Shown here in pieces: positions 6,751-43,247 of a DNA stretch of 43,247 bases. Every line of letters begins with the position of its first letter. Position 1 is the first letter of the stretch. The position numbers and the translations under genes are program-made. The notes beneath the pieces were generated by a model. The model did not search any database and was not told the DNA's origin. It saw only the letters and a list, made by a program, of their open reading frames with translations. The stretch is taken from positions 1-43,247 of IMG/VR virus record IMGVR_UViG_2540341091_000003; one strand, written 5' to 3'. This DNA comes from a virus (taxonomy: Duplodnaviria; Heunggongvirae; Uroviricota; Caudoviricetes).

Positions 6751-7377
6751 TTAGAGTTCGTATTGAACTCCTTTGACTACACCAATGATAAGGCAATTAC
6801 CATTGATAGGGATGTTGGGATACCGAGGATTTAAAGGCACTAAAAACTTTTGAGGGCCATCGATGACTAATTTTTTTACTGTAGCTTCGTTTGTTCCATC
6901 AAGTCGAGCGATGACTATTTTTCCATGACGAGGTTCTGCATCTGGATCTACAATCACTGTTGCGCCTTCTGGTATTGTTGGGAGGCCATTAGGGTTAGTC
7001 ATGGAGTCACCTTTAACCTCTAATGCAAATGAGTTATCACCAATCTTTAATGATGTATCTACCCACTTGTCCACTTCACTAAACACTTCTGCTGCCCTGC
7101 ACTCAGTAAACTGCCCAGCCTGAACCCACGATATTACAGGAACTCTGCGCATGTTTGTGACGAGTTTGCCTTCAAACTCAGCACCATAAAGAATGTAATC
7201 TATTGACGTATTGAAGAACTTCGCTAATTTCGAAAGTGCCTCCCCACCAGGGGTATTGATGTCTTTCTCCCAGTACCCCACAGCAACGTCGCTTACTCCA
7301 CAAAATTTACCCAATTCTTTCTGGGACGTTCCGGTAACTCTTCTCAGAGCTTTTATACGCTGACCAACCGTTTCCAT
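6751..7377 (-). CDS. CI-like repressor (HTH + S24 LexA-type autopeptidase domain)
   Basis: N-terminal HTH (QKELGKFCGVSDVAVGYWEKDINTPG), C-terminal ...ALEVKGDSMTNPNG... Ser-protease motif and downstream Lys; divergent from cro. Confidence 0.9.
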   Translation of the reverse strand: METVGQRIKALRRVTGTSQKELGKFCGVSDVAVGYWEKDINTPGGEALSKLAKFFNTSIDYILYGAEFEGKLVTNMRRVPVISWVQAGQFTECRAAEVFSEVDKWVDTSLKIGDNSFALEVKGDSMTNPNGLPTIPEGATVIVDPDAEPRHGKIVIARLDGTNEATVKKLVIDGPQKFLVPLNPRYPNIPINGNCLIIGVVKGVQYEL

Positions 7378-9550: not shown

Positions 9551-10041
9551 GCATGAGTCTTTTGAATGAAGTTCAGAAATTCATTGAAGCCCATCCGGGC
9601 TGTACTTCCGGAGACATTGCGGATGCTTTTGCAGGTTACTCACGGCAGCGCGTTCTGCAGTCAGCAAGCAAGTTACGTCAGAGTGGGCGTGTGGCTCACC
9701 GTTGTGAAGGGGATACACGCAGACATTTCCCGCGCCTGACTGAGAGAGCGCAGGAGCCGGAACCACAACCAGTTCGTGAAACCAGACCTGTGCGCAATTT
9801 CTATGTCGGCACTAACGATCCACGGGTGATTTTGTGCCTGACCCGCCAGGCTGAAGAACTGGAGTCCAGGGGCCTATACCGTCGTGCTGCAACGGTGTGG
9901 ATGGCGGCATTCCGTGAAAGCCACTCCCAGCCAGAACGAAACAATTTTCTGGCGCGTCGTGAGCAGTGCTTACAGAAAAGCAGCAAGCGCGCTGCATCGG
10001 GTGAAGAGTGGTATCTGTCAGGGAATTACGTGGGGGCTTAA
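9547..10041 (+). CDS. PerC-family-like transcriptional regulator
   Basis: C-terminal half ...LTRQAEELESRGLYRRAATVWMAAFRESHSQPERNNFLARREQCLQ... resembles the PerC/Pch motif as I remember it; unverified. Confidence 0.45.
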   Translation: MSMSLLNEVQKFIEAHPGCTSGDIADAFAGYSRQRVLQSASKLRQSGRVAHRCEGDTRRHFPRLTERAQEPEPQPVRETRPVRNFYVGTNDPRVILCLTRQAEELESRGLYRRAATVWMAAFRESHSQPERNNFLARREQCLQKSSKRAASGEEWYLSGNYVGA

Positions 10042-10694
10042 TGAGTAATAAATATTGCCAGGCGCTGGTGGAACTGCGGAACAAACCAGCCCATGAACTG
10101 AAGGAAGTGGGCGATCAGTGGCGCACGCCGGACAACATTTTCTGGGGAATTAACACCCTGTTTGGCCCGTTTGTTCTGGATCTGTTCACTGACGGTGATA
10201 ACGCCAAATGTGCTGCGTATTACACGGCGGAAGACAACGCGCTGGCGCATGACTGGTCAGAACGTCTTGCGGAGCTAAAAGGTGCTGCCTTTGGTAATCC
10301 CCCATACAGCCGCGCCAGTCAGCATGAGGGGCAATACATCACCGGCATGCGTTACATCATGAAACATGCCAGTGCCATGCGTGATAAGGGCGGGCGCTAT
10401 GTTTTCCTGATCAAAGCTGCCACCAGCGAAGTGTGGTGGCCGGAAGATGCAGATCATATTGCTTTTATTCGCGGGCGTATTGGTTTTGAACTGCCTGCCT
10501 GGTTTATCCCGAAGGATGAGAAGCAGGTGCCGACAGGCGCTTTCTTCGCTGGTGCTATTGCTGTTTTCGACAAGACCTGGAAGGGACCGGCAATCAGCTA
10601 CATCGGGCGCGATGAACTTGAGGCATGTGGTGAGGCGTTTCTGGAGCAGGTTCGTCAGCAGGCGGAAAAACTGGTCAGGGAGATGGCGGCATGA
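10041..10694 (+). CDS. Phage N6-adenine DNA methyltransferase (Dam-like, orphan)
   Basis: ...AAFGNPPYSRA... (NPPY motif IV) in a ~217-aa protein; start ATG 10041 overlaps the upstream stop (TAATG). The track ORF begins at an upstream alternative start (10008). Confidence 0.8.
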   Translation: MSNKYCQALVELRNKPAHELKEVGDQWRTPDNIFWGINTLFGPFVLDLFTDGDNAKCAAYYTAEDNALAHDWSERLAELKGAAFGNPPYSRASQHEGQYITGMRYIMKHASAMRDKGGRYVFLIKAATSEVWWPEDADHIAFIRGRIGFELPAWFIPKDEKQVPTGAFFAGAIAVFDKTWKGPAISYIGRDELEACGEAFLEQVRQQAEKLVREMAA

Positions 10695-13231: not shown

Positions 13232-13612
13232 TTGTGGAGAAAGTTGATGCGTGATATTCAAATGGTTCTGGATCGTTGGGGAGCATGGGCGGCGAGTGAT
13301 AGTTCAGGAGTAGACTATTCTCCTATAGCTGCTGGGTTTAAAGGGCTTCTTCCCTACACAAGCAAAACACGTCAGGCTTGTTCAGATAGTGATGCATTAA
13401 TTATTGAAGGTTGTCTTGCTCGTCTAAAGCAAAAAAAGCCAGATGAGCACTCGCTGCTTGTGGCACATTATTTATACAGAATATCCAAGCGTAAGATTGC
13501 AAAGGTGCGTGGAAAGGATGAAAAATTGGTACGCATAGAAATACAACTAGCCGAAGGATTTATTGATGGTTGCCTTTCAATGTTGGATGTTAACCTTGAA
13601 ATGGACGCTTAG
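13232..13612 (+). CDS. Late-gene antiterminator Q-like protein
   Basis: 126-aa protein at the end of the early-right operon, immediately upstream of the lysis/late region; family call by position and general resemblance only. Confidence 0.5.
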   Translation: MWRKLMRDIQMVLDRWGAWAASDSSGVDYSPIAAGFKGLLPYTSKTRQACSDSDALIIEGCLARLKQKKPDEHSLLVAHYLYRISKRKIAKVRGKDEKLVRIEIQLAEGFIDGCLSMLDVNLEMDA

Positions 13613-13647
13613 GGTTGCACAGGTTGGCCCCATATGAGGCCAACCTG

Positions 13648-14109
13648 TCACAAGTGGGGGAAGATTTTTCGTAACACTAACCAACACCTTCCGAAGGTAT
13701 ATAGCGAAATTATAAGGGAGGATAAGCCTAACAGTATGAATAGGAAATCAATAGGTTTGCCCGCAACAATAACATCATCTGGTAGAAACATCGCTATCAA
13801 TGGAAATATACATGCGACGATGAGAGTTAACCCTGTTGAAAGTAATCGATTTACCAGAGTTGGTAACACGTTGTTTTGCTTAAGGGCATTAATTGCTCCT
13901 TCCTTATCGCTGTTTGCACTACTAAATATAGATATTGCAGCCAGAACAAAACCAAACAGGATGCCTGATATAGTCGAGAGCACCCCCGCTGTTGTGAGTA
14001 CGTCAGCATGCTTCATCGGTTTAAACAGTTTTGTCGCTGCATAGGTCAACAGAATCCAGAGGACGCATTTCCAGAGAAAAGTGGCTAATTCTCTCATTGT
14101 GTCCTCCAT
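13648..14109 (-). CDS. Small integral membrane protein, four predicted TM helices (likely start at internal ATG 14095-14097 preceded by GGAGGA)
   Basis: Four hydrophobic segments (LWKCVLWILLTYAATKLF; VLTTAGVLSTISGILFGFVLAAISIF; LSTGLTLIVACIFPLIAMFL; IDFLFILLGLSSLIISLYTF); 9-bp gap to the upstream gene; AT-rich. Confidence 0.7.
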   Translation of the reverse strand: MEDTMRELATFLWKCVLWILLTYAATKLFKPMKHADVLTTAGVLSTISGILFGFVLAAISIFSSANSDKEGAINALKQNNVLPTLVNRLLSTGLTLIVACIFPLIAMFLPDDVIVAGKPIDFLFILLGLSSLIISLYTFGRCWLVLRKIFPHL

Positions 14110-14118
14110 GCTTGGTTA

Positions 14119-15060
14119 TTAGTCTCTGCTAGCGAGCTCATACTGTGCAAGATAGTTCGCGTTATCAATTTTAGCAGATATCATCGCCGTTCTGATATCA
14201 GAATCGGATGGATAACCGCTTTTGACAATGATTGTCTTTGTACTGACCAATACTTGGTCAAGTAGACTTTTGGGCGTTCTATTGGATGGCTCGGTTACAT
14301 CAATTTTTTTAATTTTTAGACCTCCAGAACCTTTTGGAAAAAGTTCAAGTAGTTCCTTAATAGCATCGGTGACAGAAGTTTTTAGATAGTTAAAACCTTG
14401 TTTTTTCGGGCGAATCCGACCTCGCATATTTAATCTTAGATGCGACCCGCCCATACCAACAACCATGTCAATAATTTCATTAGCTAAAGGGTTTTTAATC
14501 TTATAATTAGCTTTGTTAAAGTTTCTTGGAGCAGCAACTATAAGATCGAAACTACGTAGGATATTTCCGTCCTCAAGCAGTTCCTTCATGCTCTCTTGTT
14601 TCCAAATGGCTTCAAAAGTCACGCTTTTTAAATCAGTTTTGTTATACAAAATGAATGCCAGATCATTTACTTTGGGCCCTATATGGTTGAGGGTCATAGC
14701 TAATAAATCCGTTTCGTAGTAATAGATAAAATATGTTCTTTCAACTACAGAATCTTTATCATTTAAAGGAATTGTTCTCTCACTACCTGTAGCATCCTCG
14801 ATGAACGGTAGTAGGCATTCCCTTCTCCACGATACGTAACCAAAGTAACATTGCAGTGTGGTATCTTTTTGAAGAATAACTAACTTTAACCCTCGATTTG
14901 GGGTGTCTGTTGTGTAAGTTATTGGAAAAGTTACAGTATCTGCTGTGGTCATTTGCTCAAAGGCTAGTTTTGCAGCAGATGTGCCATCTTTTTTGCTTCC
15001 ATTACCAGTGAAAAAACCAACTCTCACTCGCCTAGTTTTATTCTTATTTTCTGTACTCAT
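14119..15060 (-). CDS. Hypothetical soluble protein, 313 aa, no recognisable family
   Basis: Long uninterrupted ORF on the strand opposite to all flanking phage genes; low GC; basic C-terminal half; no Walker A or nuclease motif found by eye. Confidence 0.75.
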   Translation of the reverse strand: MSTENKNKTRRVRVGFFTGNGSKKDGTSAAKLAFEQMTTADTVTFPITYTTDTPNRGLKLVILQKDTTLQCYFGYVSWRRECLLPFIEDATGSERTIPLNDKDSVVERTYFIYYYETDLLAMTLNHIGPKVNDLAFILYNKTDLKSVTFEAIWKQESMKELLEDGNILRSFDLIVAAPRNFNKANYKIKNPLANEIIDMVVGMGGSHLRLNMRGRIRPKKQGFNYLKTSVTDAIKELLELFPKGSGGLKIKKIDVTEPSNRTPKSLLDQVLVSTKTIIVKSGYPSDSDIRTAMISAKIDNANYLAQYELASRD

Positions 15061-15327
15061 TATCGATCCGAAATAATTTTAGCAACCGTGTGAAAAATAC
15101 AACAAAAAAAGAGGAAATCATTAGCGCGGTCCGCAAAAAACATTGTAATCTGTTAAGAGTGGTTACTTCGCCACACAACTTAAACCCGCCGCTGAGCGGT
15201 TTTTTTGTACCTGTAAACCTGGTGCAGTACAGTAAACACGCTGGTGGTCGTGAATACTGGCTTTTTATCTTGCTGGCTTTTTAGACAAGAGTTATTGGTA
15301 TGTCATGTTAACCAGAAGGGAAAAAAC

Positions 15328-15531
15328 ATGCTAAAACAGCAAGATATGACAGAAACCGCCGCCGCAGTCCTTCATTTCTTACCTGCTGACAAGTGGGTAA
15401 CGCCACGCATGATGACGAGAACTACCGGAGTAAGCGAAGCCCGGTGCCAGTTAATACTGACTCAGTTAGTTCTGGCGGGTCTGGCGAAGGATAACGGCGG
15501 GTACGGGAATAAATTCAGACGCTGCCAGTAA
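15328..15531 (+). CDS. Small putative DNA-binding protein (67 aa) upstream of the methyltransferase
   Basis: ORF with AAGGG RBS; MLKQQDMTETAAAVLHFLPADKWVTPRMMTRTTGVSEARCQLILTQLVLAGLAKDNGGYG resembles a winged-helix fold; the track ORF starts further upstream at 15244. Confidence 0.45.
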   Translation: MLKQQDMTETAAAVLHFLPADKWVTPRMMTRTTGVSEARCQLILTQLVLAGLAKDNGGYGNKFRRCQ

Positions 15532-15681: not shown

Positions 15682-16734
15682 ATGAAAAATACTGTAAAAA
15701 TAAACAGTGTTGATTTAATCAACGCTGATTGCCTGCATTTTATTCAGTCCCTGCCTGATGATTCCATTGACCTGATTGTTACCGATCCGCCTTACTTCAA
15801 AGTGAAACCTAACGGTTGGGACAATCAGTGGAAAGGGGACGAAGATTACCTTAAGTGGCTGGACCACTGTCTGGCCCAGTTCTGGCGGGTGTTAAAACCT
15901 GCCGGAAGCCTTTACCTGTTCTGTGGGCATCGCCTGGCATCTGATATTGAGATCATGATGCGTGAACGTTTCAACGTGCTTAACCATATCATCTGGGCGA
16001 AGCCGTCCGGACGTTGGAATGGGTGTAATAAAGAAAGTCTGCGCGCATATTTTCCTGCCACAGAGCGCGTTCTGTTTGCTGAACATTACCAGGGGCCATA
16101 TCGCGGCAAAAGTGACGACTATGCGGCAAAAGAAAGGGAACTCAAACAGCACATAATGGCACCGCTGATATCGTATTTCAGGGATGCTCGTGCCGAACTG
16201 GGTATAACGGCAAAACAAATTGCCGAAGCCACAGGTAAGAAAAATATGGTTTCCCACTGGTTTGGTGCCAGTCAGTGGCAGTTGCCGAATGAGGCTGACT
16301 ATCGGAAGTTACAGGCACTGTTTTCCCGTATAGCGGCAGAGAAGTTTCAGGAACAACAACTGGAACAACCACACCACCAGCTGGTGGCATCTTATGATTC
16401 ACTGAATCGCAAATATTCTGAATTGCTGGATGAGTTTAAATCTCTCCGGCGCTATTTCTCCGTATCAGTCTCCGTGCCTTATACCGATGTCTGGACGCAT
16501 AAGCCCGTTCAGTTCTACCCGGGTAAACATCCGTGCGAGAAACCGGCGGATATGCTCCGGCAAATAATCAATGCCAGTAGTCGACCTGGTGATCTGGTTG
16601 CTGATTTCTTTATGGGATCCGGTTCCACAATAAAAGCAGCAATGGCGCTGGGGCGTCGGGCGTTAGGTGTTGAACTTGAGTCAGAGCGGTTTAATCAGAC
16701 GGTGAAAGAGGTAAGTGAACTGGTGGGGAAATAA
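15682..16734 (+). CDS. DNA methyltransferase, beta-class N6A/N4C (DPPY motif), orphan
   Basis: ...DLIVTDPPYFKV... (motif IV) near the N-terminus and ...DLVADFFMGSGSTIKAA... (SAM-binding motif I) near the C-terminus; no adjacent restriction endonuclease gene recognised. Confidence 0.85.
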   Translation: MKNTVKINSVDLINADCLHFIQSLPDDSIDLIVTDPPYFKVKPNGWDNQWKGDEDYLKWLDHCLAQFWRVLKPAGSLYLFCGHRLASDIEIMMRERFNVLNHIIWAKPSGRWNGCNKESLRAYFPATERVLFAEHYQGPYRGKSDDYAAKERELKQHIMAPLISYFRDARAELGITAKQIAEATGKKNMVSHWFGASQWQLPNEADYRKLQALFSRIAAEKFQEQQLEQPHHQLVASYDSLNRKYSELLDEFKSLRRYFSVSVSVPYTDVWTHKPVQFYPGKHPCEKPADMLRQIINASSRPGDLVADFFMGSGSTIKAAMALGRRALGVELESERFNQTVKEVSELVGK

Positions 16735-17981: not shown

Positions 17982-18132
17982 TCTGACTTCTGAATCACCT
18001 GTGCCGCTCATACCAGAGCCCCTGACGTATGGTGCCAGCCTAGAGTTGAATGTTAATCTGTTGTCAGCGTTAGGGCAATGTAATCGGGATAAAGTCGACA
18101 TTCGCCGAATTGAGAAGCAGAGGATGAAATGA
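17878..18132 (+). CDS. Rz1-like outer-membrane lipoprotein spanin (overlapping Rz in the +1 frame and extending past it)
   Basis: MMIVLHVLCLLPLLTGCGS... signal peptide with lipobox LLTGC, then a proline-rich segment. Confidence 0.55.
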   Translation: MMIVLHVLCLLPLLTGCGSTRTVYVSTPVTPLPTSLTSESPVPLIPEPLTYGASLELNVNLLSALGQCNRDKVDIRRIEKQRMK

Positions 18133-18244
18133 GGCTATTATATTCGCTGATTAAATGCAGTATTAGTTAGAAAGTGAATACAGGGAAAATAGAATAACGT
18201 CAGATAAATAATAGCGTTTGGCATATACCAAACGCCAATTCACA

Positions 18245-18427
18245 TTAATACTGTTCGTCTCGATATTCTTTTAAAGAGGCTCCGCTGAAGTATGTTCGCT
18301 CAACGTTTTCTTTATTAAACCATTCACAGAGGTACTGTTCTCGTTCATCATCAAAATGACTAACAGTCATAAGAGGGCTGCCAGATTTAAGTTGAACAAC
18401 AGTTCCGTCAGAAAAACGTACAGACAT
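18245..18427 (-). CDS. Small conserved hypothetical protein (60 aa)
   Basis: MSVRFSDGTVVQLKSGSPLMTVSHFDDEREQYLCEWFN...; followed on its strand by a hairpin (GCGTTTGG-N6-CCAAACGC at ~18213-18234). Confidence 0.5.
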   Translation of the reverse strand: MSVRFSDGTVVQLKSGSPLMTVSHFDDEREQYLCEWFNKENVERTYFSGASLKEYRDEQY

Positions 18428-18706
18428 GTATATATCTCATCTAAAAAGTAAGGGAAAAGGCATTCATCAACCAGCGAGAGATGCTTGGCGAGAATGCTAC
18501 TTTGGTATCAATACCATGTAAGCGGTTGTTTAAGAGAAGCATAAAATCAATATTACTAACCGCACAATTTTTGAGATGTTTTCCAAAAAATGATGTCCAA
18601 TCAAAGGTCGCTTAATCTTAAGTGCAATGCAATAACCTAATTATTGCATATGTGATCTTCATCATGAATTGTTGATGAAATGTTGCATTAGTTTGAGAGA
18701 TAAATA

Positions 18707-19057
18707 ATGCCCCTACGAACCCCAAAAGCCTGCCGTGTTCGCGGCTGCCGCCATACCACAACTGACCCGTCAGGCTATTGCGAAAGCCACAAAAGCGAGG
18801 GCTGGAAGCAATACAAGCCAGGACAATCCCGTCATCAGCGCGGTTATGGTTCGAAATGGGATGCTATCCGTGAACGTGTGCTGAAGCGTGACAAAGGCCT
18901 GTGTCAGTTATGTCTGCGTGCTGGTGTGGTGCGTGAGGCGAAAACCGTTGACCACATCATCCCTAAAGCGCATGGCGGCACAGATGCCGACAGTAATCTG
19001 CAGAGCCTGTGCTGGCCGTGTCATAAGGCGAAGACGGCCCGTGAACGGCTGAGGTGA
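18707..19057 (+). CDS. HNH endonuclease (terminase-associated)
   Basis: ...CQLCLRAGVVREAKTVDHIIPKAHGGTDADSNLQSLCWPCHKAKT... HNH motif; located just upstream of the small terminase. Confidence 0.85.
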   Translation: MPLRTPKACRVRGCRHTTTDPSGYCESHKSEGWKQYKPGQSRHQRGYGSKWDAIRERVLKRDKGLCQLCLRAGVVREAKTVDHIIPKAHGGTDADSNLQSLCWPCHKAKTARERLR

Positions 19058-21418: not shown

Positions 21419-21601
21419 ATGATCATGCTGATTCTCGCGCCTCTGGTGGGCGTGCTGGGGGCGCTTTTGCTGGCGTATGGTGCCTGGCTGATTTATCCCC
21501 CGGCGGGGTTTGTTGTTGCCGGGGCGTTGTGTCTGTTCTGGTCGTGGCTGGTGGCGCGATATCTCGACCGTACACAGTCGTCTGTCGGCGGAGGTAAATA
21601 G
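21419..21601 (+). CDS. Small hydrophobic protein (60 aa)
   Basis: Two hydrophobic segments; between terminase and portal. Confidence 0.4.
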
Positions 21602-22842
21602 TGTTCTTTTCGGGATTATTTCAACGAAAAAGTGACGCACCGGTGACCACGCCAGCAGAGCTGGCGGATGCTATCGGGCTGTCATACGACACCTATACCG
21701 GAAAGCAGATCAGCAGCCAGAGGGCCATGCGACTGACGGCGGTTTTTTCCTGCGTCAGGGTGCTGGCGGAGTCGGTCGGGATGTTGCCCTGCAACCTGTA
21801 TCACCTGAACGGCAGCCTGAAGCAGAGAGCCACTGGCGAACGTCTGCATAAGCTGATCTCCACGCATCCCAATGGCTATATGACGCCGCAGGAGTTCTGG
21901 GAGCTGGTGGTCACCTGTCTGTGCCTGCGGGGAAACTTTTACGCCTACAAAGTGAAAGCATTTGGCGAAGTGGCTGAACTGCTGCCCGTCGATCCCGGCT
22001 GTGTGGTACCGAAGCTTAACAGTAGCTGGGAGCCGGTCTATCAGGTCACATTCCCGGATGGCTCCACGGATGTACTGAGCCAGGAGGATATCTGGCATGT
22101 GCGCACGCTAACGCTGGACGGACTGGTGGGGCTGAATCCCATCGCCTATGCCCGCGAGGCAATATCGCTGGCGGCAGCGACCGAAGAGCACGGGGCCAGA
22201 CTGTTCAGCAATGGCGCGGTGACGTCGGGTGTGTTGCGTACAGAGCAGACGCTGTCAGATCAGGCTTATGAGCGCCTGAAGAAAGATTTTGAGGAGCGTC
22301 ACACCGGGCTTGGCAATGCTCACCGCCCGATGATCCTTGAGATGGGGCTGGACTGGAAGTCGATGGCGCTGAACGCCGAGGACAGCCAGTTCCTGGAAAC
22401 CCGCAAGTTTCAGCTTGAAGAAATCTGTCGTCTGTTCCGGGTACCGTTGCACATGGTGCAGAACACCGATCGCGCCACCTTCAACAATATCGAAGAACTG
22501 GGGCTCGGATTTATCAACTATTCACTGGTGCCGTATCTGACCCGCATCGAACAGCGGATCAACACCGGACTGGTACGAAAAAGTAAGCAGGGCGTTTATT
22601 ACGCCAAATTTAACGCCGGGGCGTTACTGCGCGGGGATATGAAGTCCCGTTTTGAAGCCTACGCCACCGGGATTAACTGGGGAATTTACTCTCCCAATGA
22701 CTGCCGCGACCTGGAAGATATGAATCCGCGTCCCGGTGGTGATGTCTATCTCACACCGATGAACATGACCACGAAACCCTCCGATGGCAGTAAGGCCGGT
22801 AAGCAGAAGGATAACGCCAATGCAGACGAAACAACGTCTTGA
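21601..22842 (+). CDS. Portal protein (HK97 family)
   Basis: 413 aa following the terminase; GTG start per the ORF track. Confidence 0.88.
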   Translation: MFFSGLFQRKSDAPVTTPAELADAIGLSYDTYTGKQISSQRAMRLTAVFSCVRVLAESVGMLPCNLYHLNGSLKQRATGERLHKLISTHPNGYMTPQEFWELVVTCLCLRGNFYAYKVKAFGEVAELLPVDPGCVVPKLNSSWEPVYQVTFPDGSTDVLSQEDIWHVRTLTLDGLVGLNPIAYAREAISLAAATEEHGARLFSNGAVTSGVLRTEQTLSDQAYERLKKDFEERHTGLGNAHRPMILEMGLDWKSMALNAEDSQFLETRKFQLEEICRLFRVPLHMVQNTDRATFNNIEELGLGFINYSLVPYLTRIEQRINTGLVRKSKQGVYYAKFNAGALLRGDMKSRFEAYATGINWGIYSPNDCRDLEDMNPRPGGDVYLTPMNMTTKPSDGSKAGKQKDNANADETTS

Positions 22843-37279: not shown

Positions 37280-37397
37280 ACTGACGCAGGCAGAAACAAC
37301 CCGACTTAACGCCGTGCTGGATTACATTGACGCGGTGACGGTAACAGATACCAGCACCGCGCCGGATATCATCTGGCCTGAACTGCCGGAGGCGTAG
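36792..37397 (+). CDS. Tail fibre assembly chaperone (Tfa)
   Basis: 201-aa ORF immediately after the fibre gene; N-terminal 163 aa are duplicated, inverted, at 37477..37964. Confidence 0.8.
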
Positions 37398-37476
37398 GCC
37401 ATTCAATATCTGGCGCACTGGAAGTATCGACCAGCTCCAGTGCGTCCAGATAATCCAGCCACAAATTATATTGAAC

Positions 37477-37964
37477 TTCCGTCCGGCCTGCAATTTCAGT
37501 TGAATCAGACTAATGGAAGCCATTGCAGTATCAATCAGTGACTGACGTTGTGCTTCTGCCGCGTCTACTGCGGCGCTATGCTGTGCCTCGGTATCCGTCA
37601 CCCATTTCTCACCATCCCATTTATCGTATGGCGTTAACGGGGCGATAGTGGTTGTATTATCAGGGTAATCACCCGGAACTGTGATTTCTTTTGATTCTCC
37701 TGTTTCGGTGCTAAAGACGATTTCACCGCGATGGTCTGGCACATATTCCCATGAGTTAAAATCTGCAGATCGGCAGATTGCATAACCAGCTTTGTATGCG
37801 CCTGGGGCATCTAAACAGGAATATGCCGGGATACCGACACCCACAGCAAGATATTCAGTTGATGTGGAAATATATTCCCGTGTTTCACCATCATAATTAT
37901 AAACGGTAATGTCTCCGGCCTTTGTGGCGATGAGTTCATTATTTAATACAGCTTTACTTATCAT
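37477..37964 (-). pseudogene. Inverted second copy of the tfa 5' region (163 codons), which then reads antisense into the 3' end of the plus-strand tfa
   Basis: The track ORF 37215..37964 is identical to Tfa for 163 aa and then becomes W/C-rich nonsense that is the reverse complement of the genuine Tfa C-terminus. Confidence 0.6.
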
Positions 37965-38433
37965 GCAGCCCTCACAATATAATTAAAGGCGATGTTACGG
38001 GAGCGGGTTTCAGATGCTGTGCGAACTGAGCGAGATGCGTCGAATGTCCAGTTATAAGCGCCATAACCATCAATAATTTCGGCTTCCTTTAGACCTGTAG
38101 ATAATACTTTCCCATGTTGACTAAATGGCCCTGAACTAAGTACGTCTCTAAAAAGCTGGGTACGCCCAAAAGAACCAACAATATTCTGAATTGCATCATT
38201 CTGTGCAGATAATAAGTTACGACCAGAGTCAATCCCGCGCCCATCATCCCAGCCACGAATAAATTCCCCGCGTAAATCTGGTAATTTTAATGTTGGGTAA
38301 GCCTTTGCCAGATTTGGGTACTTTTCAGAAGAAAATACTGCTCCGTTACATTTTAGCCACCCCGTTGGCGGAGTGGCTGAAGGCCACGGAACAGGCACAC
38401 CAACCGGTAATGCAGAGCCTTCTCCCAAACCAA
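37961..38433 (-). other. Silent inverted tail-fibre C-terminal cassette (identical to the expressed one)
   Basis: 155 codons identical to the C-terminus of the 36034..36795 fibre; no independent start; the upstream part of the track ORF crosses the crossover site. Confidence 0.7.
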
Positions 38434-38445
38434 CGTTTATGAAAA
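38420..38445. promoter_or_regulatory. Right crossover site of the invertible segment
   Basis: TTCTCCCAAACCAACGTTTATGAAAA, ~55 bp upstream of the invertase start. Confidence 0.65.
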
Positions 38446-38499
38446 TGCAGAAATAACGAGCAAATGGCATCATTCCTGCTTTTGTCAGGGGGATCTACC

Positions 38500-40493: not shown

Positions 40494-43247
40494 CTATTTG
40501 ATTGCTGCATTGATTCGTTTATATCTTTGGGTAAAGGCCTCTTTGCCACCTTCCATCACTCGGCATATCTCATCGCGTATGGAAGGTTCTTGAAGACCCC
40601 CTTGCGCCACAATTCTGGTTTGACCAGACCGAATATCAAGGGCAATGACGTTTTCCGCGTCACCATTCACGACGATGTTAGCGTTGTGCGTGACTACTAA
40701 AACCTGCCGTTTTTGTTTGATCTCACGCAATTGCGTCACGATAAGATCATAGATTAAGTGGTTATCAAGATCATCCTCAGGCTGATCAAGTATAAGAGGC
40801 TCATTGCCATATGAAAGGATAAATGCAAGGAGAGCCGCCGTTTTTTGCCCCGGAGATCCTTGCTCTACGGGTTTGAAACTCTCGCCGTTCTTGAGGCTAT
40901 ATCTGATATCCAGAGAATCGCCTGGAAACCAGCACTGAATTCGATCTATCTGTTCCGGAGTTAGCCCCTGAATGAGGGATACAAAACGTCGATCTTTGCA
41001 GGATTCCACCGCCATAGTATCGTTTTCATGGATTGCAAGTAGCGATGATTTTATTTTCTCAATTTTATCATCCATAGTATTGGATTGGTCTTGCGTTAAA
41101 TAAGCCAGCAAGCCCTCATCCCCGTCAACAACTCCAATGTCGCGGTCAAATCCGCCACCACTGCGGCCGATCAGGTTACGGAATTCTTCCTCAACCGTAA
41201 TCTTGTTTCCAAACGGAATGACATTGATCTGTACATATGAATTGCCGACGAGAGTATCCTTGAGAAAGTCCTCACGAAGTTTGGTTATCAATGCTCGATG
41301 CTCATGGAGTTTGACCAAGTATTCTTCCGCGCTCTTCTGATGCTGCGCAAGAGTTTCTCTCTTTTTGTCGAATCCCTTGAGCTTATCTTCGAAATCTTGT
41401 CGCTGCTTAACCAGAACACCATATGCAGATGGATCACCTGCGTCTGCTGCGCTGAGTTGACCGAGGAGGGCGTTGTATTCATGGCTCGCCGCTGTAATTC
41501 TTTTCGATATTCCCAAGTCTGATCGAGTTTGATTCCATGAGTTCTTCACATCATCAATCCGCTGCGCGATCGAGTTCATCTCTGTCTGAAGCTTCTCAAA
41601 CGTCGCACGGATGTCCTTGATGGTATCGAAGAGTTCTTTGTCATCCGCATTCCCAATGTCGAAATATTGTAAATCCAATTCTGCTGGCAGTAGGCTTCCA
41701 GAAATATCTCGGACCTGTTCGGCGGAATCCTCCCAAGTCGTTACCCAGGAGTCCATAGCCTTACTCTGGTTCTGTCTGAGTTGGTAAGCCTTAAGGACAT
41801 CCGCGTGGCCCGCCTTTTCAAAAACATCGAGTTTGCGTTTGACGTCTTCAAGCTGACCTTTGGTTACCGATTCTTCCTGAAGCCCAGCCTGAACTTCACG
41901 CTCTTGGGCGCGAAGCGAGAGATATTTGGAAACCAGTTCATCCCACTTAAGCTGCCAATCACGATGATTGACCTCCGGGGCATCATCGACAACCTGCAAG
42001 AGTGCTTGGGGATGCTTTGCCAATTCGAATATCTGTTTCTGGCTGTAAATCCTGACAGGAAATCGTTGTGCTATGTCTCCCTCGGAATCACACCAGACTC
42101 CGGGAGCGGTCTCTTCCTCGATGCTGTATATGTCGTCGGTATTAGACCAGGTGATTCGGAAACGGCCACCGTCTTTTCGAAAGCCTACAGTTATTTTCGT
42201 GGAATCTTTTAACAGCCCTTCATCTTGGCGGTCTTTCGAAGTTTGACTGTATTTGGTAAATTCCTTTTCAAGGCTCTTGGGGATTTCTCCCTTTCGTTTA
42301 AGAGCAATCCGCAGGAATTCCAACGAAGTCGATTTCCCAGTGCCTCGTCCACCAATGATAGTGTTGAGCCAGGGGTTCAGTTGACAAGTTAAAGATTGCC
42401 CTCGTCCTAAGTACTTCGCATCATCAACCACGATACTTTCGATGGCAAGTTGTCCATGGATATTTGGGTCACCAGTGAAGTTGTCCGACCGCTTCAGTGA
42501 AAGAGCACCATCAACGAGCGCCAGCCGTAATCCGTCATAAGATGGCTCCGACATTTTTACCCAAGTGAAATGGCTACCCGGGTAGCGTTGATTTCCGGTA
42601 CCGGACGGATGATGGGAATCGGTTCCAAGAATCTCTGCCCAATTCAAATTCTTGCCAATATAGAGCTGCGGTTTTGCTTTAGCAAGGTCCGTTACCTCCA
42701 TAGCAAAAACACATTTGTTGTCAAGCACCTGCTCTAGTGTGTTGCCCGTACAGACCGTAAAAAGTCCGCTAGCCTGATCTACATGAGCAGGTATTGCAAG
42801 TCCTCCTGACCTAGCAATTTCGTCGATCACCTCAACTGCTGAGCATTCAGAGCAGCCGTCGCTCTTTCCTTTGGTGCCGCGATACCTGACCGCACCAAGC
42901 AGTGAGTCGATATCAGAGGTTGTCTTGTCTTCGCCGAAAATGGCCAGAATATGGATATTCCCCTGAACAGTAAGCTCAACACCTGGGAATAAGTAGAGTG
43001 GTCGATAATCTTCATGACTCTCAGATGCCAGTTCCTTGAGTGCCTGCTTGAGCGGATCAATCCAAGCGCCTGAATTATGGTCCGTGACAGCGACACAATC
43101 GATGCCTTGTCGCATGTAGTTGAGCAGCCAATCTTTATGAGTGATCTGCATATACTGGGCCTGATTAGGGCCTTTTCCATAATCGTCCGATGCCGGAGTG
43201 TGATTATGGAAGTCGAATTTCCACCACCGAGAACCAATCCAGTTCAT
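40494..43247 (-). CDS. PHP-domain phosphoesterase fused to an SMC/RecN-like ABC ATPase (917 aa); architecture resembles Ppl-type single-gene antiphage proteins
   Basis: N-terminal PHP motifs (WWKFDFHNHTPAS; VAVTDHN; GVELTV...IHILAIF; AIPAHVD; LGTDSHHP), Walker A GGRGTGKST (~aa 299-307), long coiled-coil-like insert, signature-like QGSPGQKTAALLAFIL, Walker B LILDQPEDDLD and VVTHN H-loop. The window ends exactly at its start codon. Confidence 0.8.
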   Translation of the reverse strand: MNWIGSRWWKFDFHNHTPASDDYGKGPNQAQYMQITHKDWLLNYMRQGIDCVAVTDHNSGAWIDPLKQALKELASESHEDYRPLYLFPGVELTVQGNIHILAIFGEDKTTSDIDSLLGAVRYRGTKGKSDGCSECSAVEVIDEIARSGGLAIPAHVDQASGLFTVCTGNTLEQVLDNKCVFAMEVTDLAKAKPQLYIGKNLNWAEILGTDSHHPSGTGNQRYPGSHFTWVKMSEPSYDGLRLALVDGALSLKRSDNFTGDPNIHGQLAIESIVVDDAKYLGRGQSLTCQLNPWLNTIIGGRGTGKSTSLEFLRIALKRKGEIPKSLEKEFTKYSQTSKDRQDEGLLKDSTKITVGFRKDGGRFRITWSNTDDIYSIEEETAPGVWCDSEGDIAQRFPVRIYSQKQIFELAKHPQALLQVVDDAPEVNHRDWQLKWDELVSKYLSLRAQEREVQAGLQEESVTKGQLEDVKRKLDVFEKAGHADVLKAYQLRQNQSKAMDSWVTTWEDSAEQVRDISGSLLPAELDLQYFDIGNADDKELFDTIKDIRATFEKLQTEMNSIAQRIDDVKNSWNQTRSDLGISKRITAASHEYNALLGQLSAADAGDPSAYGVLVKQRQDFEDKLKGFDKKRETLAQHQKSAEEYLVKLHEHRALITKLREDFLKDTLVGNSYVQINVIPFGNKITVEEEFRNLIGRSGGGFDRDIGVVDGDEGLLAYLTQDQSNTMDDKIEKIKSSLLAIHENDTMAVESCKDRRFVSLIQGLTPEQIDRIQCWFPGDSLDIRYSLKNGESFKPVEQGSPGQKTAALLAFILSYGNEPLILDQPEDDLDNHLIYDLIVTQLREIKQKRQVLVVTHNANIVVNGDAENVIALDIRSGQTRIVAQGGLQEPSIRDEICRVMEGGKEAFTQRYKRINAAIK

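Follow-up and report, generated by a model that had tools for sequence, protein, structure and literature searches.

Introduction

Five Rex-like systems were counted in a 2026 paper, and the chemistry of trigger and effector in the Rex system of phage lambda is debated about 70 years after its discovery (PMC12894663). The lambda system consists of RexA and RexB (Pfam PF15969/PF15968; PDB 8TWQ). Here we describe a pair of adjacent genes, named A and B, which is probably a prophage-carried exclusion (abortive infection) module of the two-component RexAB type, its function being predicted. The pair is located in a stretch of 43,247 nucleotides (nt), in the following called the window, which is the IMG/VR record IMGVR_UViG_2540341091_000003 (Caudoviricetes). 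The window represents a prophage of Escherichia coli APEC O78 integrated beside proA and a tRNA-Thr gene, with 100% identity to NC_020163.

Pairwise comparison reveals no detectable sequence similarity between the window pair and lambda RexA/RexB, and protein A is 34 residues longer than RexA. While lambda rexAB belongs to the immunity operon, the window module lies antisense between gene Q and the putative late promoter and therefore cannot be co-transcribed with the repressor. A location by the repressor is not universal among Rex-like pairs, however, as the pair of mycobacteriophage Sbash is also displaced and follows closely on the lysis cassette. In Sbash gp30/gp31 and Gordonia phage CarolAnn gp44/gp43, as in the window pair, a soluble protein precedes a four-helix membrane protein, and the central cytoplasmic loop of their membrane proteins is functionally important. 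Indeed, Sbash gp31 is a RexB-like effector, and mutations in its central loop abolish defence (PMC6426596). Both systems differ from the window pair in that they belong to phages of Actinobacteria, possess A proteins of about 370 amino acids (aa) and respond to specific phage proteins as triggers. The RexABpp pair of Pseudomonas putida prophage P1 (PP_5643/PP_5644) was validated experimentally and is located downstream of a CI-like repressor (PMC12894663), unlike the window module. RexBpp, with substitutions described up to residue 181 (PMC12894663), is longer than protein B with its 149 aa.

Genes A and B

An earlier reading of the sequence alone (the sequence-only reading) had pointed to two minus-strand open reading frames (ORFs) at 14119..15060 (313 aa) and 13648..14109 (153 aa), separated by a gap of 9 bp. 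Both ORFs are present, and in the RefSeq annotation of E. coli APEC O78 they appear as hypothetical proteins. The gap is better given as 21 nt: gene B most likely starts at its second ATG (14097) and encodes 149 aa, because a GGAGG motif lies 5 nt upstream of this codon, which is also the start chosen by the Prokaryotic Genome Annotation Pipeline (PGAP) and found in nearly all of 82 homologues. The module thus comprises the following elements.

14119..15060, minus strand: gene A, predicted cytoplasmic RexA-like protein of the DUF6731 clade, 313 aa, with a predicted split globular domain and a four-stranded dimerisation domain.
14103..14107, minus strand: presumed Shine-Dalgarno sequence GGAGG of gene B, read from the sequence in the 21-nt spacer after the TAA stop codon of A; homologues begin at the corresponding Met.
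13648..14097, minus strand: gene B, predicted RexB-like four-helix membrane protein, 149 aa, as judged from hydrophobic segments, AlphaFold helices, hhalign comparison with RexB and linkage to A.

The GGAGG motif in the spacer is consistent with a two-gene operon. Both genes are real and under purifying selection: in comparison with an 85%-identical homologue, non-synonymous and synonymous differences per site (pN/pS) were 0.084/0.68 for gene A and 0.071/0.43 for gene B. As the sequence-only reading had stated, the pair runs opposite to its neighbours and is richer in AT than the backbone. A and B are the sole annotated minus-strand genes between 7475 and 18132, and the GC content is 0.36-0.43 across 13600-15200 versus 0.48-0.59 upstream and 0.47-0.51 downstream.

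Family and predicted fold of protein A

Direct searches with proteins A and B against Pfam, NCBIfam and PADLOC, the last of which had been proposed as a check, gave no significant match. PHROGs assigned them only to families of 'unknown function' (7651 and 8552), and a profile hidden Markov model of A found no match among all PDB sequences. A family assignment was obtained by way of the relatives of A. Homologues at 45-61% identity reached 31-45 bits against the Pfam model DUF6731 (PF20505; cut-off 27), 72 of the 83 sequences in a broad A alignment matched this model, and RefSeq names the A variant of the cdtI type 'DUF6731 family protein'. A search of 1.84 billion representative proteins with the A-clade profile retrieved only 168 clusters (50% identity), all of which are single-domain proteins of roughly 280-320 aa; those tested were DUF6731. 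Since the relatives match DUF6731 and the clade profile retrieves DUF6731 proteins, whereas the window protein has no match of its own, its membership is transitive. Named members of the family occur in Enterobacterales, Aeromonas, Vibrio, Shewanella and Pseudoalteromonas, and many others stem from unnamed metagenome sequences; there is no Pseudomonas entry among the named clusters of distant matches.

Thus the module, which had been called unclassifiable, can be placed: A belongs to the DUF6731 clade, and in the DefensePredictor supplement (PMC13092281) a cluster labelled 'RexAB~RexA' is paired with PF20505 DUF6731 at an HHsearch probability of 99.8. According to this, the link between the family and RexA was already implicit in data derived from DefenseFinder. 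The Pfam entry for DUF6731 gives no function, and a literature search found no mention of the protein accessions or of DUF6731/PF20505 in main texts. The same supplement (files 3 and 4) counts among its predicted novel defence genes an unrelated hypothetical E. coli protein of 340 aa, WP_000654526.1. Of the known relatives of this protein, the closest is again the DUF6731 'RexAB~RexA' cluster (22% identity, probability 95.8), a hint that E. coli may have more Rex-like families.

The AlphaFold model of A (predicted local distance difference test, pLDDT, 80; predicted template modelling score, pTM, 0.79) consists of an N-terminal antiparallel sheet with flanking helices, followed by four central strands with helices and by a C-terminal strand and helices that rejoin the first domain. 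This order of secondary structures fits the description of lambda RexA as a split globular domain interrupted by a dimerisation domain (PMC11077077). A Foldseek search of the PDB with the model, which had been suggested as a check, ranked RdgC first. Protein A is therefore predicted to adopt the RexA fold, which is of the RdgC type. RdgC itself (PDB 2OWL) is a stand-alone, ring-forming housekeeping protein with an extra tip domain and without a membrane partner. We rejected the possibility that A is such a stand-alone RdgC, as there is no Pfam match, the similarity is at the level of the fold and weaker than that to RexA, and the window gene always occurs with a membrane partner on mobile elements.

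Conserved features of A comprise a GP-x3-DL motif and a basic loop (R213/R215) after the dimerisation strand. A is also the larger and the more conserved of the two proteins and has many invariant polar residues, as might be expected if the roles were reversed and the cytoplasmic A were a toxic antiphage effector that the membrane protein B sequesters until infection. Such a reversal is documented for one Rex-like pair, gp30/gp31 of mycobacteriophage Butters (PMC12894663). According to the same paper, the membrane protein acts as effector in four of the five Rex-like systems described so far. A showed neither a nuclease nor any other enzymatic motif, and we consider the reversed arrangement decidedly unlikely.

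Remote homology to RexA and RexB

Profile-profile comparison by hhalign was applied to both proteins. The broad DUF6731 alignment of 83 sequences matched a RexA alignment with an E value of 1.2e-3 over 250 collinear columns. The RexA alignment was then enlarged by four divergent RexA proteins from viral contigs, two of which were scanned against Pfam and both confirmed as RexA. With this alignment the probability was 87% and the E value 3.7e-6, at a score of 48.4 over 253 collinear columns (14-295 versus 2-271). As controls, profile reversal gave scores of about 14, and among 60 block-shuffled templates the highest score was 25.1. The best-conserved motif of the window clade, NH-L-GPK-xx-DL, aligns with F-GPT-xx-DL of RexA. 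A shallow A profile gave no significant result against the single lambda RexA sequence; it picked out the shared GP-x3-DL segment. A tblastn search of the phage collection with lambda RexA found only close RexA proteins. At the level of profile-profile comparison, A thus appears to be homologous to RexA.

For the B partners, a first comparison with RexB yielded an E value of 1.3e-3. After the alignment had been enlarged by four partners of distant DUF6731 genes, the probability was 80% and the E value 1.4e-5, with 90 columns in register from helix 2 via the central loop to helix 4; controls scored at most 18.2 versus 37.6. The four hydrophobic helices recognised from the sequence are borne out by hydrophobic segments and the AlphaFold model (pLDDT 80), which agree on helices at residues 2-24, 30-60, 77-104 and 116-145; the model adds a short helix in the central loop. 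Spacing and size of the helices are the same as in RexB. When the B model was compared with the viral structures in BFVD, the second-best match was a Sbash protein of 165 aa (probability 0.99), and 165 aa is also the length encoded by Sbash gene 31. The central loop of B, with an ALK motif, is conserved amid divergence, and in partners of distant DUF6731 genes there are 'KKHGYY'-like loops reminiscent of the invariant YGY of RexB. Taken at moderate strength, these data suggest that B is a four-helix membrane protein homologous to RexB. The likeness of a soluble and a membrane protein to RexA/RexB, which the sequence-only reading had noticed as a layout, is thereby sharpened: the comparisons support a remote homology of both proteins to RexAB, beyond the layout.

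The Kiwa system offers the same parts list, since it combines a four-helix membrane protein with a partner of roughly 315 aa that binds DNA non-specifically (PMC11785009), and RexA-like proteins are modelled as DNA clamps. A Kiwa-like module would work without depolarisation: B would sense membrane stress at phage entry, and A would bind the incoming DNA and block replication and late transcription. However, the order kwaA-then-kwaB is opposite to that of the window genes, and KwaB is built from a Rossmann-like N-domain plus DUF4868, in contrast to the antiparallel-sheet RexA/RdgC topology of the A model. Neither window protein matched the KwaA/KwaB (DUF4868) models in PADLOC and Pfam, and a literature search for KwaB together with RdgC gave nothing relevant. 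The doubts about Kiwa raised from the sequence were thus justified, and a Kiwa-like mode of action is very improbable.

Linkage and genomic contexts

Co-conservation of the pair across prophages had been named as a further check, and it was found: A and B are linked in 79 of 80 IMG/VR loci with an A homologue (43-100% identity), where B starts 2-28 nt downstream. The partner in these 79 loci is a membrane protein of 145-157 aa with four to five hydrophobic segments, and the lone exception has a truncated A. Each of the five distant relatives examined retains the partner, too.

In Enterobacterales the pair is convergent with a PF06530-type Q gene in 74 of 78 loci. Elsewhere it occupies other places. 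In Aeromonas hydrophila a cI-type repressor gene (HTH_3 plus Peptidase_S24), A and B follow each other in one orientation and are divergent from cro, which is the cI-rexA-rexB layout of lambda. In a PM2-like Vibrio prophage the pair adjoins the integrase gene, and in a P2-like prophage (comparison locus L109, 324-3565) a 43%-identical pair adjoins sopE, encoding the type III effector SopE, and tail-fibre genes. The sopE neighbourhood links the module to a classic site of virulence cargo. Another copy is located between tail and Arc/Bro genes.

The window variant occurs in 73 of 5,426 complete E. coli genomes, in each case at least 99% identical, and the cdtI variant in 25. In E. coli NDM2 (NZ_CP083886, 3654224-3657560) an IS2 element interrupts the module region, an example of natural inactivation.

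A variable cargo slot downstream of Q

The module fills a variable slot, delimited as follows.

13613..15119, no strand: AT-rich variable cargo slot from the end of Q to the conserved late-promoter-like block, defined by the limits of flank homology and by composition.

The flanks of the window are 92-99% identical to those of phages cdtI, PhiR40_1 and mEp460; this homology ends at about 13605 on the left and restarts at 15120-15183 on the right. Within this set the slot contains a 45%-identical variant of the A-B pair, an antisense lipoprotein gene or a sense lipoprotein gene. Different cargo between near-identical flanks in sister phages means that the slot between Q and the putative late promoter exchanges cassettes. 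The idea of a cargo insertion, put forward from the sequence, is borne out, and the data support the A-B pair as accessory cargo in a variable slot downstream of Q. No specific report of a defence hotspot after Q in lambdoid phages turned up in a literature search. The lipoproteins are an antisense one of 148 aa in PhiR40_1 and a sense one of 139 aa in mEp460 (compared stretches L122, 2963-3409, and L121, 3007-3423).

The pair had been placed between Q and the lysis cassette. It is indeed downstream of Q, but not directly beside the holin gene, as a 95-aa ORF (15244-15531) and a DNA methyltransferase gene (15682-16734) intervene. With holin and endolysin genes near, a lysis accessory function (holin, antiholin or spanin-like) or a structural phage function has to be considered, and the record of phage vB_EcoS-733R5 (ON470608; L004, 3977-4918) calls the A homologue a 'portal (connector) protein'. 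This label appears to be a mis-annotation, because family and fold give no support for a portal and because the prophage has a separate portal gene (21601-22842). There was no match to a portal or holin family, both genes run against the late operon and lie upstream of the promoter-terminator block of that operon, the pair is absent from sister phages with the same lysis genes, and elsewhere it is located far from lysis genes. A lysis or structural role is therefore scarcely credible.

Putative regulatory elements around the module

Three further elements border or precede the two genes.

15076..15105, minus strand: weak candidate promoter of the module, TTGTTG, 18 nt and TGcTAAAAT (extended -10), given at its exact position.
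13615..13653, minus strand: strong hairpin from the stop codon of B in the 35-bp gap between the convergent genes Q and B (fold -27.3 kcal/mol, z -4.6).
15120..15207, plus strand: backbone block with GCGGTCCGC, followed by a predicted intrinsic terminator; conserved together with the Q type, it lies outside the module and sets its right boundary.

The sequence-only reading had proposed a promoter TTGTTG-18 bp-TAAAAT. This string exists, but it lies at 15105..15076 and not at 15084-15113, agrees with the consensus at only 8 of 12 positions and was absent from the output of a promoter scan; the TG gives an extended -10. A module promoter at this position is plausible as a candidate. None of 200 shuffled sequences folded as well as the hairpin at 13615..13653, which is without a U tract and is likely to act as a 3'-end or transcription barrier element.

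The backbone block contains the palindrome GCGGTCCGC and TGTAAT as well as the terminator GCCGCTGAGCGG plus T7, at 15188-15200 and then the T run. The GCGGTCCGC block is conserved across module variants of 56-100% protein identity and is present in 72 of 76 loci. Phages that carry this Q have it in common, but it is absent from the shared segment of mEp460, which has a different Q. The block probably represents a Q-dependent late promoter, a Q-binding site and tR', with promoter hexamers that are only putative. Since the module is antisense to this late-promoter-like block and upstream of it, its expression cannot depend on Q. Judged from the layout alone, head-on early transcription through Q may silence the module after induction.

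This arrangement, convergent with Q in 74 of 78 Enterobacterales loci and back to back with the late-promoter-like block in 72 of 76, is what one would also expect if the pair were Rex-like and served mainly the prophage's own biology instead of the exclusion of other phages. As a DNA binder, the RexA-like protein could tip the choice between lysis and lysogeny or the late-gene decision, and the RexB-like protein could modulate proteolysis or the timing of lysis. Indeed, lambda RexA acts without RexB on the bistable CI/Cro switch (PMC11077077). However, the pair is also found away from Q, namely after cI in Aeromonas, by the integrase gene in the Vibrio element and by sopE in the P2-like prophage, and the strict linkage of A and B fits two-component exclusion systems. 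Moreover, sister phages carry unrelated cargo in the slot, so the phage does not need the module. A main role in the prophage's own biology, including these effects on decision and lysis timing, is thus unlikely.

A more specific proposal is that the placement between the Q stop codon and the late-promoter block is functional and wires a Rex-like pair into the commitment to late gene expression; we give it little credence. If it were true, early head-on transcription could switch off the module after induction, or the RexA-like clamp could act on the nearby late promoter. The RexB-independent effect of lambda RexA on CI/Cro would then extend to the step of Q and the late promoter, and the module would be a device for both self-regulation and exclusion and not simple cargo.

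Other genes of the prophage

The prophage is a mosaic (1459-39054) in which a lambdoid part, comprising the early, Q and lysis region, is combined with a head of the HK97 type and a Mu/P2-like contractile tail; the tail part carries a pinE invertase gene and inverted tail-fibre fragments (37369-38470). It has two genes for DNA methyltransferases, at 15682-16734 (plus strand) and 10041-10694 (plus strand), one of which, of the N6_N4 type, sits between the module and the holin gene. At the position of that methyltransferase, related prophages (L116, L117) have an Endonuclease_NS gene. A further small antisense gene of the YodC family (18245-18427, minus strand), probably a separate item of accessory cargo, lies just past the lysis cassette in a patch of low GC content (0.37-0.40; 18000-18800). 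The gene at 40494-43247 (minus strand), which is cut by the end of the window, encodes a 917-aa 'TrlF family AAA-like ATPase' that matches the PADLOC Ppl defence protein over almost its full length (E 2.3e-157). According to this match at the right prophage edge, the element seems to carry a second, already known defence gene.

Discussion

We favour the view that the A-B pair is a RexAB-type exclusion module. It draws on the fold and profile homology to RexA/RexB, on strict linkage and gene order, on purifying selection and on the residence in cargo slots of several kinds of temperate phages. As very distant relatives of lambda RexA and RexB, the proteins would most likely cause infections of the lysogen by other phages to abort and so protect it. 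By analogy with lambda Rex, Sbash gp30/gp31, CarolAnn gp44/gp43 and P. putida RexABpp, we expect dimerisation, DNA binding and sensing as well as channel activity and protection.

On this basis a mode of action can be proposed. In the lysogen, the module's own promoter would drive a low production of A and B that does not depend on the late operon of the phage. A would be located in the cytoplasm as a RexA-like protein of the RdgC-type fold and would be expected to dimerise and to clamp DNA without sequence specificity. B, made from the same transcript, would be a RexB-like four-helix protein of the inner membrane whose N- and C-termini face the cytoplasm, as does the conserved central loop. 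Upon infection by another phage, A would sense a phage-specific cue; this may be a certain protein of the phage, a complex of DNA and protein, or intermediates of replication or recombination. It would then change its conformation and activate B, probably via the central cytoplasmic loop, the likely site of contact or gating. B would open as an ion channel or pore; depolarisation of the membrane, a drop in ATP and growth arrest would follow, and the infection would be aborted.

Several points weigh against this interpretation. A defence function of the pair is predicted from homology and context. Even for lambda Rex itself, the trigger and a true channel activity are unsettled (PMC12894663). 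Protein A stays below the reporting level of the Pfam DUF6731 model, which its relatives alone match. Neither window protein matches the RexA/RexB models of Pfam (PF15969/PF15968) and PADLOC (PDLC02339/02340) at E<=1; the same models detect the lambda proteins with E values of 1e-97 to 9e-110 for RexA and 8.5e-92 to 8.6e-61 for RexB, and the validated Sbash pair likewise escapes them. In the first hhalign runs, for which the profiles of A and B were shallower, the probability was only about 19%, and comparison with the single sequences of Sbash gp30 and gp31 revealed no significant similarity. The evidence for B is weaker than that for A, given the biased composition of membrane proteins and the frequent occurrence of the four-helix bundle as a fold. 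The candidate promoter is below the threshold of the promoter scan, which reported fewer sites than shuffles, and its -10 element is not conserved in variant modules. Finally, the repressor-like gene of the window is at 6751-7377, and the module lies 6 kb away, antisense after Q and thus not in the immunity region. Location in this region and co-expression with the repressor are found in the Aeromonas relative and not in the window.

In our view the module is best filed as a further, very divergent, predicted member of the RexAB kind in an unusual slot. The advance is incremental, as the link between DUF6731 and RexA is implicit in tables derived from DefenseFinder and the architecture is not new. 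It would place DUF6731 and a previously unnamed family of four-helix partners in the Rex superfamily, and it documents the slot between Q and the putative late promoter as an exchange site for antisense cargo. The module would provide an easily cloned, highly divergent Rex comparator that is native to E. coli and in which conserved features stand out against the divergence. As Pfam and PADLOC 2.0 miss the module, Rex-type defences are probably under-counted in prophages.

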